64,000 nucleotides of DNA from sequence record MH051917. The stretch is one strand, 5' to 3'. Every line of letters starts with the position of its first letter. The stretch's first letter is position 1. The notes below the pieces were generated by a model. It did not search any database. It was not told where the DNA came from and saw only the letters and a program-made list of their open reading frames with translations. A program made the translations under genes and the position numbers. This DNA comes from Enterobacteria phage vB_EcoM_IME341. Below are positions 11,802 through 17,472 of the stretch, in pieces.

Positions 11802-11831
11802 GTTTACATCCCTCAGAGGACAGGGTATAAT
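11802..11831 (+). promoter_or_regulatory. early promoter (GTTTAC / TATAAT) with inverted repeat
   Basis: gtttacatccctcagaggacagggtataatgtcctc. Confidence 0.55.
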
Positions 11832-12515: not shown

Positions 12516-13058
12516 ATGAGTTTATATGATGACCTGATATCAAATATTGATTGGTTTAAACATAGCGGTCTTTCCCATGAAACTAATGCAGTTCTTTATA
12601 GAATTCGCCAAGACCTAGGTTATTCCAATGATTTCTTAAGTCGAACAAGTAGCCATGGACACACTACCAAATTGCCCTTTATCTTCGCTTTAGCTGAAGA
12701 CCTTTCTTTTGCAGAAGCTTTAGAAATTATTGACGTAAATCTGGGTATTCAACGAGTGGAATTCGCTGGATTATGCTATTCAGTATACGCTTTAAATGAA
12801 CCAAGTGATTGTAAACAGCTTGTTGATGCTGACGATGATTACCATTTAGTATGCTATTTGATGTTAGAAAATGGTGACCACTTTGGTATGGTCGACCGCC
12901 GCCCGAGTTATTCGGATATTAAAAATTACGATAAAGATGAGCTTATTATTTTGGCTAATGAGTATACATCAGAGATTCGAAAACAACAACGGAAGCTTAA
13001 TCGTTTTATTGCTGAATGTCGCGAATACGCTAAAGAGGTTCAAAATGGAACGGCCTAG
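12516..13058 (+). CDS. hypothetical protein
   Basis: 180 aa, SD GGAGGAGAGG upstream. Confidence 0.5.
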   Translation: MSLYDDLISNIDWFKHSGLSHETNAVLYRIRQDLGYSNDFLSRTSSHGHTTKLPFIFALAEDLSFAEALEIIDVNLGIQRVEFAGLCYSVYALNEPSDCKQLVDADDDYHLVCYLMLENGDHFGMVDRRPSYSDIKNYDKDELIILANEYTSEIRKQQRKLNRFIAECREYAKEVQNGTA

Positions 13059-13398
13059 TCTTTCATCACATGTTTATCAATTGGCTGAATATGATATTGC
13101 TATTTCCTTATTTATGGGAATTGTCACCGGTATGCTAGGAGGTTTGGTTGGTCTGGTAATGACCACGGTTATGGCGGCAATCGAAGGAGTCACGCCTATT
13201 GAGATGGGTTTTTATATGATAATCGCTCCGGCTGTCGTGGCTTATTTTATCCCTGTTGTGTATGATATTTGCCATACAAACGCTTTGAATGCTCCCATCC
13301 GTAAGAGATATGCTTTAGAGATGGCTAATTATAATGAGCATGTAAAACAAACTAAACGTAATGACCTTGAAATCTTTATTAAGGAATGTAAATCATGA
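13045..13398 (+). CDS. small membrane protein
   Basis: 117 aa from ATG 13045 (ORF-track start 12871 is inside preceding gene); two hydrophobic helices; C-terminus FIKECKS. Confidence 0.5.
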   Translation: MERPSLSSHVYQLAEYDIAISLFMGIVTGMLGGLVGLVMTTVMAAIEGVTPIEMGFYMIIAPAVVAYFIPVVYDICHTNALNAPIRKRYALEMANYNEHVKQTKRNDLEIFIKECKS

Positions 13399-13685
13399 AT
13401 AAAATTGAAATCGAAATCCCAGAACACAACGATGAGAAATCTGCAGAAAAGGCTATCTATGCTCTTCTGAATAAAGTGAATACCATCGAACATGAATGTG
13501 AAGCTATTGCCGATAAGTATGGTATCCAATTCGGTACCGGTGATTATGGTTCAGGCCGTACATATTATCCTGTCGGTTATGAATGCTCCCAGTGGTTTAA
13601 AGATGAAATTGAAAACAACGGCGGTGAAGTTGAAAACGGCGTCGTTACAGTTGGTGCTTGGGTCTCCTCTTCAGCAATGTGCTAA
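13395..13685 (+). CDS. small acidic protein, WxSSSxxC-tail family member 1
   Basis: 96 aa, ends GAWVSSSAMC; first of five tandem paralogs. Confidence 0.55.
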   Translation: MNKIEIEIPEHNDEKSAEKAIYALLNKVNTIEHECEAIADKYGIQFGTGDYGSGRTYYPVGYECSQWFKDEIENNGGEVENGVVTVGAWVSSSAMC

Positions 13686-13694
13686 GGAAACGCT

Positions 13695-13976
13695 ATGATG
13701 AATGATAACCATAACAACCCGGAGCTTCTGGCCGCAGTAAAAGAAATCCATGAAGCTATTCGTCGTGCTGAGGAAATTGCAGACAAATATGAGACTCATT
13801 TTAATATATACCCTGCTCGCGGTATGGGCGGTGACTATTATTCTCCTGGCGCCCTGAAAGCTGACCTGGCCCACTGGGAAGAAGATGGTCATCCTGAATG
13901 GGCTATTGTTAATACTCATGACTATACAACTGACCTGGAAAATGGTGGTTGGGTGTCCTCTTCTTCTGAATGTTAA
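13695..13976 (+). CDS. small acidic protein, WxSSSxxC-tail family member 2
   Basis: 93 aa, ends GGWVSSSSEC. Confidence 0.55.
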   Translation: MMNDNHNNPELLAAVKEIHEAIRRAEEIADKYETHFNIYPARGMGGDYYSPGALKADLAHWEEDGHPEWAIVNTHDYTTDLENGGWVSSSSEC

Positions 13977-13985
13977 GGAATTATT

Positions 13986-14183
13986 ATGTCTCGTGAATTA
14001 GATTGTGCAATCCGTACTGCAGCCGCAGCTATTGAAAACGTTATCCAGATTTGTAAAGAAGAACGCGAAGAAGCCGATATCTATATCGATGGTGTTCGTG
14101 ACCTAGAACGACATATCACGCTTTATAACGGTTGTATTACTATTAGTGGTACCTCTTGGGTGTCCTCCTCTTACGAATGCTAA
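13986..14183 (+). CDS. small protein, WxSSSxxC-tail family member 3
   Basis: 65 aa, ends TSWVSSSYEC. Confidence 0.55.
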   Translation: MSRELDCAIRTAAAAIENVIQICKEEREEADIYIDGVRDLERHITLYNGCITISGTSWVSSSYEC

Positions 14184-14192
14184 GGAAATAAA

Positions 14193-14402
14193 ATGACTAT
14201 TGATGAAATTGAAAAACAAATCCGTGAATTAGTACGTAAAGGCCAGTCTGTGGCTGACGAAACAGGTCAGCACTTCCACGCTGGTGGCGAAGAATATATT
14301 CCAGCTTCTAGTCCGGAATATGATGATTACGAATGGGTCCGTGATGACTACGGTATTCCTGAAGGTGAAGGTTTCTGGTTTAGCTCCTCTATGTCTTGCT
14401 AA
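14193..14402 (+). CDS. small acidic protein, WxSSSxxC-tail family member 4
   Basis: 69 aa, ends GFWFSSSMSC. Confidence 0.55.
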   Translation: MTIDEIEKQIRELVRKGQSVADETGQHFHAGGEEYIPASSPEYDDYEWVRDDYGIPEGEGFWFSSSMSC

Positions 14403-14412
14403 GGTGATAAAA

Positions 14413-14637
14413 ATGACTGATATTAATGAATTAGAAAAAGCGGCACTTGAACTGGCTGCACTGTATAAGAAAGTAAAAGATATGGCTTCTGCTCAGGATT
14501 TTGGTGTTGAGCTCGATGATTATGACGGTGAAGTTCGTCTCGAAGATTGGCTGAATAGCTCTTGTTATGGTGAAGAAGCTGGTCGCACCTTCGTTGCTCG
14601 GTCCGATGGTAAAATCTGGTACCCAAGCTCATGCTAA
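14413..14637 (+). CDS. small acidic protein, WxSSSxxC-tail family member 5
   Basis: 74 aa from ATG 14413 (SD AAGGTGA), ends KIWYPSSC. Confidence 0.5.
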   Translation: MTDINELEKAALELAALYKKVKDMASAQDFGVELDDYDGEVRLEDWLNSSCYGEEAGRTFVARSDGKIWYPSSC

Positions 14638-14858
14638 AATTGAAAAAACGATACATTCGTAAAATAAACGGTCTTCGCGATTATGCCAAAGGTTGGCCAC
14701 TAAGTATTATTATGGCTGATAGACACCCACGTTATAATACCGAGATGACTTATTACAAAAAGTATGATTCGTATTGTCGGTCTAAAGCAGGCCGTTTAGA
14801 TGGTTCTTACGAAGACTATTTTGGTAAAAAACCTACTCGTGTTTCGTTAGGAAAATAA
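14631..14858 (+). CDS. hypothetical basic protein
   Basis: 75 aa ORF overlapping previous stop; no clear SD. Confidence 0.35.
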   Translation: MLKLKKRYIRKINGLRDYAKGWPLSIIMADRHPRYNTEMTYYKKYDSYCRSKAGRLDGSYEDYFGKKPTRVSLGK

Positions 14859-14888
14859 TTTAACCACATGGATGTGGTAGGAGGACTT

Positions 14889-15218
14889 ATGCATAAAGAT
14901 TCAGTATTCAAATATCTTTTGAAAACAGATAAAGAATTCTATATGAATGGGCAAGCCTTCTTGTTCGTTCGTGGTAAACGTGAGATGTTTTACAAATGCG
15001 ACCTCTCAATGCACCATCATATGTATCACACCCATGGCGAGCCTATACTGGGGTTCTCTGGTGACGAAACTAGACGTATAGCTATGTACTACGACCATTT
15101 TAAGCTCAATGATTGTGGTGACAACGCTCTGGTCTGGAATCCATCTTGGCGTCGTTGGGATACGGTAGACAACGATAAATTATTTTTAGAATATTGCAGA
15201 AGTGATGTACAACTCTAA
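14889..15218 (+). CDS. hypothetical His-rich protein
   Basis: 109 aa from ATG after SD AGGAGGA; alternative start 14868. Confidence 0.45.
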   Translation: MHKDSVFKYLLKTDKEFYMNGQAFLFVRGKREMFYKCDLSMHHHMYHTHGEPILGFSGDETRRIAMYYDHFKLNDCGDNALVWNPSWRRWDTVDNDKLFLEYCRSDVQL

Positions 15219-15261
15219 AAATACGTGTTACTATTACCCTACACAAACATGAGGAGAACAT

Positions 15262-15501
15262 ATGTGGTATTACGCTCCGATGTCCGATAAGTCTAATGAA
15301 CCGGTACGCATTACTCGTGCCAAGTTTAAAAAGATTTATGGCTTTGCTTATAAGAAGTCTGATTACGGTGTTCGTTTTGAAGATGCTCACTGTATCAATG
15401 ACCCTTATGCAGAAGAAATTTCTAATGAGATAATTCCTATCGTTGAGAGTAATTCCAATGATATGTGGGAATTGCATAACACTTACGTTGCCGAAATTTA
15501 A
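15262..15501 (+). CDS. hypothetical protein
   Basis: 79 aa, SD GAGGAG upstream. Confidence 0.5.
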   Translation: MWYYAPMSDKSNEPVRITRAKFKKIYGFAYKKSDYGVRFEDAHCINDPYAEEISNEIIPIVESNSNDMWELHNTYVAEI

Positions 15502-15520
15502 GTTTACTGAGGAAAATATT

Positions 15521-16480
15521 ATGATGCTAGTTATTGGTTCTCGCGCACTGCACCACGCTGGTCTGATTGAAAATAAGTATATCGAAAATTCTGATTGGGA
15601 TTTCATTGCCGACCAAGGCTCATGGAACCACTTTAAAGCTCGGATGTTCGGCGCCCATGTACACGTTGACAATCCTGATGTTCAGGCTTTCAAATGTATG
15701 CATAATGGTAAAGAAACCTATTTCGAAGCTTATATCGTCCGTGCTCTGACTAACGTACGTGAAATCACTGGTGAGCTCCAAGACGAAGATTTCACCTCAA
15801 GTTATCGTCTCCTGAAATATGCTGAAAATCGTATTAAAAAGGACCGTCTTACAGGTTTCTATTGGGCTACGCCTGATATCTGTCTGGCTATCAAAACCTC
15901 TCATCGTTTCCTGAAGAATAATCCTTTCTTCTTGAAAACTATGTCCCACATCAAATACCTTCGTAATAAAGGTATCACCCTGAATGAAGAACTCCAGGAA
16001 ATTATGCTGCAGCGTCAAAAAGAAACGTTGAGCTATTCCCACCCTAAATTGGATGTAAACAAATCATCGTTCTTTAACGATACCATTTATACGCTAGACC
16101 ACGACTCTATCCATGAAGCCGTGGCATTGGCAGGGCGCCCGGCATATACCTTTTATATGAAGGAAGGTTCTGAAGTCATGACCTCTCGTGAGAAGTTCGA
16201 GGCTTTGCCTGAAGCTATTAAACTGGCTGGTGTATATGAAGAAACTTGTGTCCTGGCACTAGAACGTTCACAGGTTCCTAATGACTTCAATATTTCACCA
16301 TCATTAAGTTTCTATATGGCTCTTGAGAAAGTGTGTACCTCAATCACTTCAGGTTGGTTCCGTGAGTACGCCTGGGAAAACTACCAAGCTGTGGTTAATA
16401 TGTACAAGACTTTAGGTGAAAACGACTACATCAAACGATTCCAAGATAACCATCATTTAATTCGTCCTTTCGAAAAATAA
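15521..16480 (+). CDS. hypothetical protein, possible nucleotidyltransferase-fold N-terminus
   Basis: 320 aa from ATG 15521 (SD GAGGAA); N-terminal GS...DWD resembles a loose Pol-beta NTase motif. Confidence 0.5.
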   Translation: MMLVIGSRALHHAGLIENKYIENSDWDFIADQGSWNHFKARMFGAHVHVDNPDVQAFKCMHNGKETYFEAYIVRALTNVREITGELQDEDFTSSYRLLKYAENRIKKDRLTGFYWATPDICLAIKTSHRFLKNNPFFLKTMSHIKYLRNKGITLNEELQEIMLQRQKETLSYSHPKLDVNKSSFFNDTIYTLDHDSIHEAVALAGRPAYTFYMKEGSEVMTSREKFEALPEAIKLAGVYEETCVLALERSQVPNDFNISPSLSFYMALEKVCTSITSGWFREYAWENYQAVVNMYKTLGENDYIKRFQDNHHLIRPFEK

Positions 16481-16492
16481 TTGCATAAAATT

Positions 16493-16521
16493 GTTTACAA
16501 GGTCTATAGGCATGATACTAT
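16493..16521 (+). promoter_or_regulatory. early promoter cassette
   Basis: gtttacaaggtctataggcatgatactatagacctatcaaaacaa, identical to the 7206 copy. Confidence 0.6.
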
Positions 16522-16558
16522 AGACCTATCAAAACAACAGAGTGAAATGGAGAATAAA

Positions 16559-16771
16559 ATGAAACTTTCTAACCAAGCAATCAACATGTTAAACGAAGTT
16601 CGTGCAGCTGGTGCTAAATGCCTGATGGTTAACACTCGTGACGGTGACCTTCGTCAAGCATTCGGTGAATTGAAATCTGCTGACCTGGTTAAATGTTCAG
16701 TTGGTATCGGTAACGCACTTCGTGTATCCTTATCCCCTAAAGGTAAAATGTACTTTTTCAACAAAAAGTAA
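16559..16771 (+). CDS. hypothetical protein
   Basis: 70 aa from ATG after cassette SD GGAG; ORF-track start 16481 is a TTG inside the promoter. Confidence 0.5.
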   Translation: MKLSNQAINMLNEVRAAGAKCLMVNTRDGDLRQAFGELKSADLVKCSVGIGNALRVSLSPKGKMYFFNKK

Positions 16772-16785
16772 GTGAGGAAAATATT

Positions 16786-17472
16786 ATGAACGGTCCAAAA
16801 ACTTTTAATTCTAAAGCTCGTGCAGTAGGTGGTTTCGCTGGTAAAATTTCTAATGATAAAATCAAAAACGAACCTATGTTCTTCAACAGCTCGTTGGCCT
16901 TCGCTTTTGATAATGGTGGCCCTATTACTCGCAGCTTCATCATGAACCTACCGGATGATTGGAACACTGACCGGGTTGTATTTGATTCTCGTGTTCATAT
17001 GCTGATGCCTGGCTGGTACCCTGCTATCCCAGGTTATCACCATGATGATGTACCACGTCCGGATATTCCGGTTGGCCAACACTTTATTACCGCAGGGCAG
17101 CCTGATTATGATAATCCTCGTTACCATTCTGAACATATTCTTGGTCTTGTTAACGCTGATGTGTGTCCTACCCATTTTGCAACCGGAACTGCGCAATTTA
17201 GCCAGATTCCTGAAGGCGAACTTATCTATCGCCAGTGGCATAAAGAAGTTCTGGAAAAAATTGAGTCCAATGAATTAACCAAGTGGGATGCTCCTGACCG
17301 CACGTTGCTCCAATTTGATTGGCAGACATGGCATACAGGTTCTCGTGCAGTAAGTAACGGTTGGCGCTGGTTTGGTCGTGTCTCTCGTAATACCGACCGT
17401 GTTAAAAAGATTACTAATGAAATCCGTGTTAATGCTCAAGTTTATCTGGAATTCCCTATGGAGGGCTGGTAA
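16786..17472 (+). CDS. hypothetical protein
   Basis: 228 aa, SD GAGGAA upstream. Confidence 0.55.
   Translation: MNGPKTFNSKARAVGGFAGKISNDKIKNEPMFFNSSLAFAFDNGGPITRSFIMNLPDDWNTDRVVFDSRVHMLMPGWYPAIPGYHHDDVPRPDIPVGQHFITAGQPDYDNPRYHSEHILGLVNADVCPTHFATGTAQFSQIPEGELIYRQWHKEVLEKIESNELTKWDAPDRTLLQFDWQTWHTGSRAVSNGWRWFGRVSRNTDRVKKITNEIRVNAQVYLEFPMEGW

Follow-up and report, generated by a model that had tools for sequence, protein, structure and literature searches.

We analysed a 64,000-nucleotide (nt) stretch of Enterobacteria phage vB_EcoM_IME341 (record MH051917), hereafter the window, which carries five consecutive small open reading frames (ORFs), O1 to O5, and, downstream of this array, a gene for a putative nucleotidyltransferase (Table 1). 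Over a 2.2-kb segment spanning the array, the sequence matches Escherichia phage IME08 (Dhakavirus, Tevenvirinae) at 100% identity, on the complementary strand. The array site is a variable region, with transfer RNA (tRNA) genes and e.6 on one side and e.2, nudE and e on the other, and internal head protein genes are present in the same genome region. As the first-pass annotation had claimed, the ORF listing contains five consecutive plus-strand frames with W..SS..C-type tails. A six-frame scan of the 64 kb for the pattern W..S.{0,3}C-stop returned O1 to O5 and two stray matches, and the base-shuffled control gave a mean of 1.1 matches per window; with five consecutive ORF-end tails in 1.25 kb against about one match per shuffled window, chance is ruled out. 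The same annotation had placed TAAGGA and an ATG after every ORF, which is correct for O1 to O3 but not for O4 (TAAGGT) and O5 (TAAAAT). Specifically, the stop of O5 is overlapped by the ATG of the next gene (ATGCTAA), and no Shine-Dalgarno sequence follows it. In RefSeq NC_014260, O4 is unannotated and O5 (orf120) is extended at its 5' end to 14248 (14248-14637), running across O4; O4 is also missing from the JS98 record, and it is annotated in phages C6, dhabil and SP18.

Table 1 Features of the window around the small-protein array (aa, amino acids; E, expectation value; HMM, hidden Markov model)
Feature	Position	Strand	Description
O1	13395-13685	+	96 aa; main type; ends GAWVSSSAMC; tail WVSSSAMC at 13659-13682; phrog_899 E 1.4e-23
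O2	13695-13976	+	93 aa; main type with GMGG hairpin motif; ends GGWVSSSSEC; tail WVSSSSEC at 13950-13973; phrog_899 E 3.4e-19; family HMM E 8e-22
O3	13986-14183	+	65 aa; shortened divergent member without Y-G-x-G-G hairpin; ends TSWVSSSYEC; tail WVSSSYEC at 14157-14180
O4	14193-14402	+	69 aa; ends GFWFSSSMSC; tail WFSSSMSC at 14376-14399; phrog_899 E 2.2e-13
O5	14413-14637	+	74 aa; two-motif subtype; ends KIWYPSSC; internal DWLNSSCYGE and terminal WYPSSC at 14617-14634; phrog_899 E 4.9e-10
Putative partner enzyme	15521-16480	+	319 aa; MenT/AbiEii-like nucleotidyltransferase; Pfam DUF7277 + DUF7275
48-nt junction repeat, three copies	13658-13705, 13949-13996, 14156-14203	+	direct repeat, 65-79% identity; tail codons + TAA + GGA + 6 nt + ATG
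orf119	14631-14858	+	phrog_7065, no function label; start inside O5 stop (ATGCTAA)
orf118	14868-15218	+	phrog_9796, no function label
orf117	15262-15501	+	phrog_3723, no function label
Sigma-70-type promoter-like site	11803-11831	+	TTTACA-17-TATAAT; 11/12 consensus match; upstream of e.6 homolog

The bodies of the five proteins had been described as unrelated, and this description does not hold. O1, O2, O4 and O5 match phrog_899 at E 1e-23 to 5e-10. The direct PHROG match of O3 is phrog_4882, and its link to the main family comes from profile-profile comparison with hhalign, in which the main family was represented by 43 typical members. The O3-type ortholog profile matched it with 91% probability (E 1e-6) and the O5-type ortholog profile with 93% (E 4e-7); the match between the O3 and O5 sets reached 98%, a figure inflated because the O3 alignment contained one O5-type sequence. 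All five proteins are acidic (isoelectric point, pI, 4.2-4.6) and have in common an amphipathic helix at the N-terminus, with ...A-D/E at its end, a Trp in mid-protein and the tail, whose W, S-S and terminal C are invariant. The Y-G-M-G-G-type hairpin reads YGSGR in O1 and RGMGG in O2, is reduced in O4 (AGGE) and is missing from O3 and O5; it is found in 139 of the 189 small proteins retrieved by a word-indexed search and a HMMER search combined. The shared profiles, helix, acidity and tail thus show, at the sequence level, that the array arose by old tandem duplication of the gene for one small, acidic protein specific to phages, the copies now sharing about 25-30% identity.

The proposal to look for such small proteins in other phages was fruitful. 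Exhaustive searching of 1.84 billion representatives with HMMER yielded 476 clusters (50% identity) at E<=1e-3, nearly all of the matches being 68-140 aa long, mostly 70-110 aa, acidic and aligned up to the last residue; the word-indexed search found close relatives only. Cys is the terminal residue in 177 of the 189 retrieved proteins and is followed by one residue in 8 more. Among the 177 Cys-ending proteins, W is kept in 166, the Ser at position -4 in 169 and the Ser at position -3 in 168, while position -5, the first 'S' of the tail, is variable (S/A/P/N/T). The consensus is G-G-W-[VI]-[S/A/P]-S-S-x-x-C, with W-x-x-S-S-(x-x)-C as the invariant core. The subtype that contains O5 carries the motif in two copies (...DW[LQN]SS[SA]CYGE...W-x-x-S-[SN]-C), and an internal copy is also present in several typical family members. 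Natural departures from the tail were observed. The O3-type ortholog of Shigella phage phi25-307 (L009:4205-4378) ends in ...ITVQG and has lost the tail, and a near-identical gene of phiC120 (L012:4205-4402) retains W-V-S-S-S-x-x-C. ZZ1p0083 of Acinetobacter phage ZZ1 (L022:2036-2224) has an AYGMGG hairpin and ends in ...WSASSENS without a terminal Cys, a rare exception.

Scans of the five ORFs and 64 diverse members against Pfam, NCBIfam and PADLOC gave nothing meaningful, and a PDB sequence search with the family profile returned coiled or designed helices only. The statement that no described T4 family has this tail stands, with no member found in T4. A weak HMM match to T4 Tk.1 (E 0.04-0.1) was rejected, as this protein has no tail. 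Seven weakly matching stretches in a protein of 2,381 aa (P0103) covered profile positions 29-70 only and were taken as spurious (repeat or low-complexity).

The AlphaFold2 model of O1, built with the family alignment, has a predicted local distance difference test (pLDDT) score of 93.3 and consists of a long helix (residues 14-42) and a small sheet. As seen in the model, the W-V-S of the tail forms the last β-strand (88-91) and the S-S-A-M a terminal helical turn (92-95). The tail residues are therefore predicted to be part of the fold and not a loose tag. The modelling shows a predicted family fold comprised of an N-terminal helix, a small β-sheet with, in most retrieved members, the Y-G-M-G-G hairpin, and a last strand and terminal turn that contain W-x-x-S-S-(x-x)-C-COOH.

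The gene downstream of the array encodes a protein with two Pfam domains. As annotated (15443-16480), it matches DUF7275 at E 2e-77 and DUF7277 at E 3.5e-27. The RefSeq start of this gene (orf116) is a TTG at 15443, 26 codons early and overlapping orf117; homologs, at 305-322 aa, point to the ATG at 15521 as the true start. Thirty homologs keep G6-S7, D25-x-D27 and E69, the signature of polymerase-beta-type nucleotidyltransferases, and share a conserved set of His, Asp and Lys in the C-terminal half. The AlphaFold2 model of the enzyme (pLDDT 91.6) superposes on the MenT1 toxin (10.8), ANT(2'') (9.0), TglT/MenT3 (9.0), MenT4 (8.2), a nucleotidyltransferase of H. pylori (8.1) and LnuA (7.2), in each case over 115-147 residues of the N-terminal half only. 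The model thus shows a predicted MenT/AbiEii/ANT(2'')-type nucleotidyltransferase fold with an intact catalytic motif (G[SG]...DxD...acidic). A PDB sequence search gave no match to the enzyme. A tentative reading of the DUF7275 half as an HD-like phosphohydrolase, prompted by a conserved H...H...DHD...H, drew no Pfam HD match at thresholds as loose as E 10. GenBank phage records with the enzyme number 732.

The small family and the enzyme lie together in many phages. On all six long metagenomic contigs reached through members, a DUF7277+DUF7275 gene of about 300 aa lies downstream on the same strand, at a distance of 3 nt to 2.1 kb, and the wider gaps are filled by further members; the arrays on metagenomic contigs hold 3, at least 7, and 6-7 members. 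Member and enzyme genes are adjacent in three loci (L013, L015 and L029), and in L029 they stand 3 nt apart within a three-gene plus-strand block between minus-strand genes. In IME08, 883 nt separate O5 from the enzyme gene. The association was also seen in phages chosen without regard to the small proteins. Among ten GenBank phages picked solely by tblastn to the enzyme, seven carry same-strand members no more than 3.3 kb away: Shewanella phage Thanatos-2, Aeromonas phage 25, nieznany (Phapecoctavirus), the jumbo Xanthomonas phage XbC2, Stenotrophomonas phage YB07, Pseudomonas phage VCM and Acinetobacter phage ZZ1. This set includes Phapecoctavirus, Otagovirus, Menderavirus, a jumbo phage, and Aeromonas, Shewanella and Acinetobacter T4-likes. 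The three negative phages, Vibrio CZ01 (L023), Streptomyces Annadreamy (L024) and Gordonia Culver (L025), have shorter enzyme homologs (251-263 aa); in the actinophages Annadreamy and Culver the DUF7275 half alone matches, and the CZ01 homolog has 26% identity. As these short homologs have no small genes nearby, the small proteins track the full-length DUF7277+DUF7275 architecture.

Eighty IMG/VR loci found by the enzyme profile gave a similar picture. Members were detected by HMM in 69 of them, one to six per locus, and 4 more have an upstream motif-ending ORF (about 73 in all); in the subset with more divergent enzymes the count is 42 of 52 loci. The members lie on the enzyme strand in 170 of 170 cases and upstream in 168, and 169 of the 170 end in C or C+1; the median gap between the enzyme gene and the nearest member is 482 nt. 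A conserved-peptide pattern was additionally run against 185,579 bacterial and archaeal species, each represented by one genome. The enzyme appeared on only five contigs of metagenome-assembled genomes, four of them 73-167 kb long. Upstream members are present on four of the five, and the fifth contig (2.3 kb) has almost no upstream sequence. Neither family was found in the complete T4 genome, and 5,426 complete E. coli genomes contained no similar DNA. Together, these searches show both families to be restricted to phages, as judged from the sequences compared. In distant phage lineages, the DUF7277-DUF7275 gene is closely preceded on its own strand by arrays of 1-7 small genes. No fusion proteins joining the two families were found.

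A third gene was noticed near some enzyme genes. 'DprA-like' proteins (L016:5184-5813, L017:6884-7459, L018:1596-2177 and L020:2215-2718) match one another by BLASTP at E 1e-19 to 1e-31, and their genes lie within about 2.5 kb of the enzyme gene in four unrelated phages. The gene is present in 11 of the 80 IMG/VR loci and not in the IME08 window, so it is not a core component. The three genes between the array and the enzyme in the window gave no match in a Pfam scan; the product of orf119, 75 aa long and very basic (pI 10.0), stands directly behind the five acidic proteins.

Two explanations had been offered for the tail, a protein-level signal or a constraint on RNA, in which the codons are kept since UCCUC pairs with the downstream AAGGA Shine-Dalgarno sequence and couples translation. 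Some features of IME08 fit the RNA explanation. The minimum-energy folds of junctions 1-3 contain pairing of UCCU with AGGA, 5 of the 14 tail Ser codons are TCC against 12% genome-wide, and the junction is a 48-nt DNA repeat. However, the four Shine-Dalgarno-bearing junction RNAs are no more stably folded than their dinucleotide shuffles (z +0.5 to +1.9; z -1.6 for the O5 junction, which has no Shine-Dalgarno sequence), and an Rfam search gave no match. Comparison of the tail codons of five close orthologous arrays (C6, JS98, dhabil, TH41 and SP18) with IME08 revealed 21 differing codons, 15 synonymous and 6 non-synonymous; the six are confined to variable positions and spare W, S-4, S-3 and C. 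The sequence after the O1 tail in TH41 is TAATATGATG, without GGA. In other genera (Providencia phages, Mosigvirus, Moonvirus and a Klebsiella phage), the peptide is kept while the Ser codons range over TCA, TCT, TCG, TCC, AGC and AGT, with TCC in 2 of 26. Sequences after the tail are likewise diverse in these genera: overlaps of the type TAATGA or TGATGA, TAAAATG, a hairpin resembling a terminator, and TAG with non-coding DNA. Since the Ser codons are free, the downstream context varies and the folding is shuffle-like, RNA pairing is rejected as the cause of the conservation, and we regard this explanation as scarcely credible. The codon comparisons show instead that the tail is under selection at the amino-acid level. 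Counting plus-strand ORFs of 60 aa or more, the window contains the junction TAA-GG[AT]-N6-ATG five times, four of these in the array; TAAGGA-N6-ATG is, on the simplest reading, an ordinary stop-overlapping Shine-Dalgarno site carried along in each duplication, and ordinary coupled translation is plausible given the 9-10-nt spacers.

Of the protein-level signal, the amino-acid conservation stood up, as it extends across 476 clusters, but the idea of a loose tag did not, and nothing points to targeting or lipidation. The terminal Cys, nearly invariant and nearly always the last residue, could in principle be a signal for lipidation or secretion, or for entry into the capsid as with the T4 internal proteins, and internal head protein genes do occur in the region. 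Yet these acidic, predicted globular proteins lack a signal peptide and a lipobox, a conserved N-terminal capsid-targeting sequence was not seen, the tail is predicted to lie inside the fold, and the phages that carry members have unrelated virions, the member genes always standing next to that of the enzyme. Such a role in targeting or attachment is therefore very unlikely.

The layout and the linkage point to a two-part phage system that has not been described. We infer that the small proteins are direct partners of the enzyme, with an antitoxin-like regulatory role as the most likely form of the partnership; this is our leading explanation, held tentatively and with slightly less than even confidence. 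MenT toxins add nucleotides to the acceptor ends of tRNAs. In M. tuberculosis, the 68-aa MenA1 is encoded upstream of MenT1 and blocks it (PMC10435456), and unrelated MenA antitoxins induce auto-phosphorylation in the toxin active site (PMC11375011). The phage small proteins and the enzyme would make up a single module, expressed early in infection. In this model, with MenA1 as the analogue, the small proteins would dock on the enzyme and present the tail, with its Ser-Ser and terminal Cys, at or near the active site, and the docked tail could gate when, or on what, the enzyme transfers nucleotides; several diverged copies may tune or diversify this control. Early expression is probable; a promoter-like site, the best match within 8 kb in a consensus scan, precedes the array (Table 1) and no plus-strand terminator-like site was found between it and the enzyme gene. 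This site may be the start of an early transcript that covers the array.

The likeness of this module to MenA1-MenT1 (Rv0078B/Rv0078A), MenAT and AbiE lies in the layout, with a small gene upstream on the same strand, and in the enzyme fold. The differences are considerable and, with several properties of the loci, weigh against an antitoxin-like role. The phage module is carried by virulent phages, for which there is no obvious need for an addiction module. Its small protein has another predicted fold, the C-terminal W-x-x-S-S-(x-x)-C and no homology to known MenA or AbiEi antitoxins, and it is present in one to seven copies; a variable number of up to seven diverged copies per array is untypical of antitoxins. 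The enzyme stands outside the DUF1814/AbiEii family (with each half searched at E up to 10, Pfam still gave no domain other than DUF7277 and DUF7275) and outside the PADLOC models, which gave no match, and it has an extra, large, helical DUF7275 half of about 180 aa with no fold assigned. Additionally, three unrelated small genes separate array and enzyme in IME08 and other Tevenvirinae, and 7 to 11 of the 80 IMG/VR enzyme loci have no detectable member. Because many of these 80 loci come from related T4-likes, fewer independent observations underlie the counts than their size suggests; despite this, the linkage pattern recurs in several phage families.

The same gene linkage would also fit a reading in which the small proteins are substrates, the enzyme covalently modifying the tail, e.g. 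by O-nucleotidylylation of Ser-Ser or by a reaction at the terminal Cys, and the array supplying diversified precursor or carrier proteins to one enzyme. The nearest structural relatives transfer nucleotides to hydroxyls (the tRNA 3'-OH for MenT, antibiotic hydroxyls for ANT(2'') and LnuA), and the invariant tail residues carry nucleophilic hydroxyl and thiol groups at a constant distance from the C-terminus. Prochlorosin clusters have multiple ProcA precursor genes and one ProcM, and the phage locus resembles such multi-precursor modification systems in that several diverged small genes with a conserved part stand next to a single enzyme gene. The invariant Ser and Cys also recall lanthionine and AviCys, with S-x-x-C-COOH spacing in O1-O4 but not in O5. 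Unlike the leader-core peptides of lanthipeptide-type clusters, however, the phage small proteins are predicted folded domains in which the tail is packed and not a free peptide, and the Ser-to-Cys spacing differs in the O5 subtype. Lyase, cyclase and protease genes were not recognisable nearby in Pfam scans; no dehydratase, cyclase or decarboxylase was found either, as the scans of most ORFs in 12516-17472 gave only DUF7277 and DUF7275. We consider modification of the tail unlikely, and the fuller version of this idea, a protein-modification system in which a bifunctional enzyme nucleotidylylates the tails of diversified proteins, possibly followed by elimination or Cys cross-linking, has a modest and still lower probability.

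Alternatively, the small proteins could act independently of the phage enzyme, e.g. as decoys or inhibitors of host AbiEii/MenT-type toxins or other host proteins; an arms race would then account for their diversification, and the linkage would reflect common descent or co-regulation only. Small acidic proteins in a hyperplastic early region, with copy numbers of 1-7 and strongly diverged paralogs, resemble counter-defence gene sets, and the anti-phage system AbiE has an enzyme of this fold (PMC7725324; PMC13064643). But the same-strand, upstream and near-adjacent order across unrelated phage families exceeds usual co-regulation, and PADLOC and anti-defence annotation is absent. A host-directed role is thus improbable to about the same degree as modification of the tail, and we prefer an antitoxin-like regulator of the enzyme.

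ANT(2'')-Ia and LnuA are stand-alone resistance enzymes without a small-protein partner; they have no sequence similarity to the phage enzyme, which has an additional domain. By HMM score, the window proteins are members of phrog_899, phrog_4882, phrog_2141 and Pfam DUF7277/DUF7275, and these entries record no function, C-terminal motif, paralog arrays or inter-family linkage. A literature search turned up no paper that mentions phrog_899 or DUF7275/7277 and nothing relevant on the YGMGG motif or the RB69 ORF names, and the module does not figure in a survey of jumbo phages (PMC7824862). The families were known before as unnamed clusters (phrog_899, phrog_2141, DUF7275/7277); their motif, arrays, linkage and MenT-like fold appear to be undescribed.

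Both families have a wide distribution among large virulent phages that infect Proteobacteria, and 'unknown function' is their only label. Their joint travel and the predicted MenT/AbiEii-type fold turn two anonymous families into one testable two-component system. The small protein combines a confident predicted fold, without a match among solved structures, with a near-absolute last-residue Cys, an unusual requirement. If the module were a modification system, it would provide a set of modified effector or carrier proteins for host takeover, through a multi-precursor pathway of a kind undescribed in phages. Should the enzyme edit tRNA ends in the manner of MenT toxins, the module could serve the phage to shut off host translation or to counter tRNA-directed defence; the small proteins would in that case represent regulators of a new class or, for this enzyme clade, the first substrates that are proteins.

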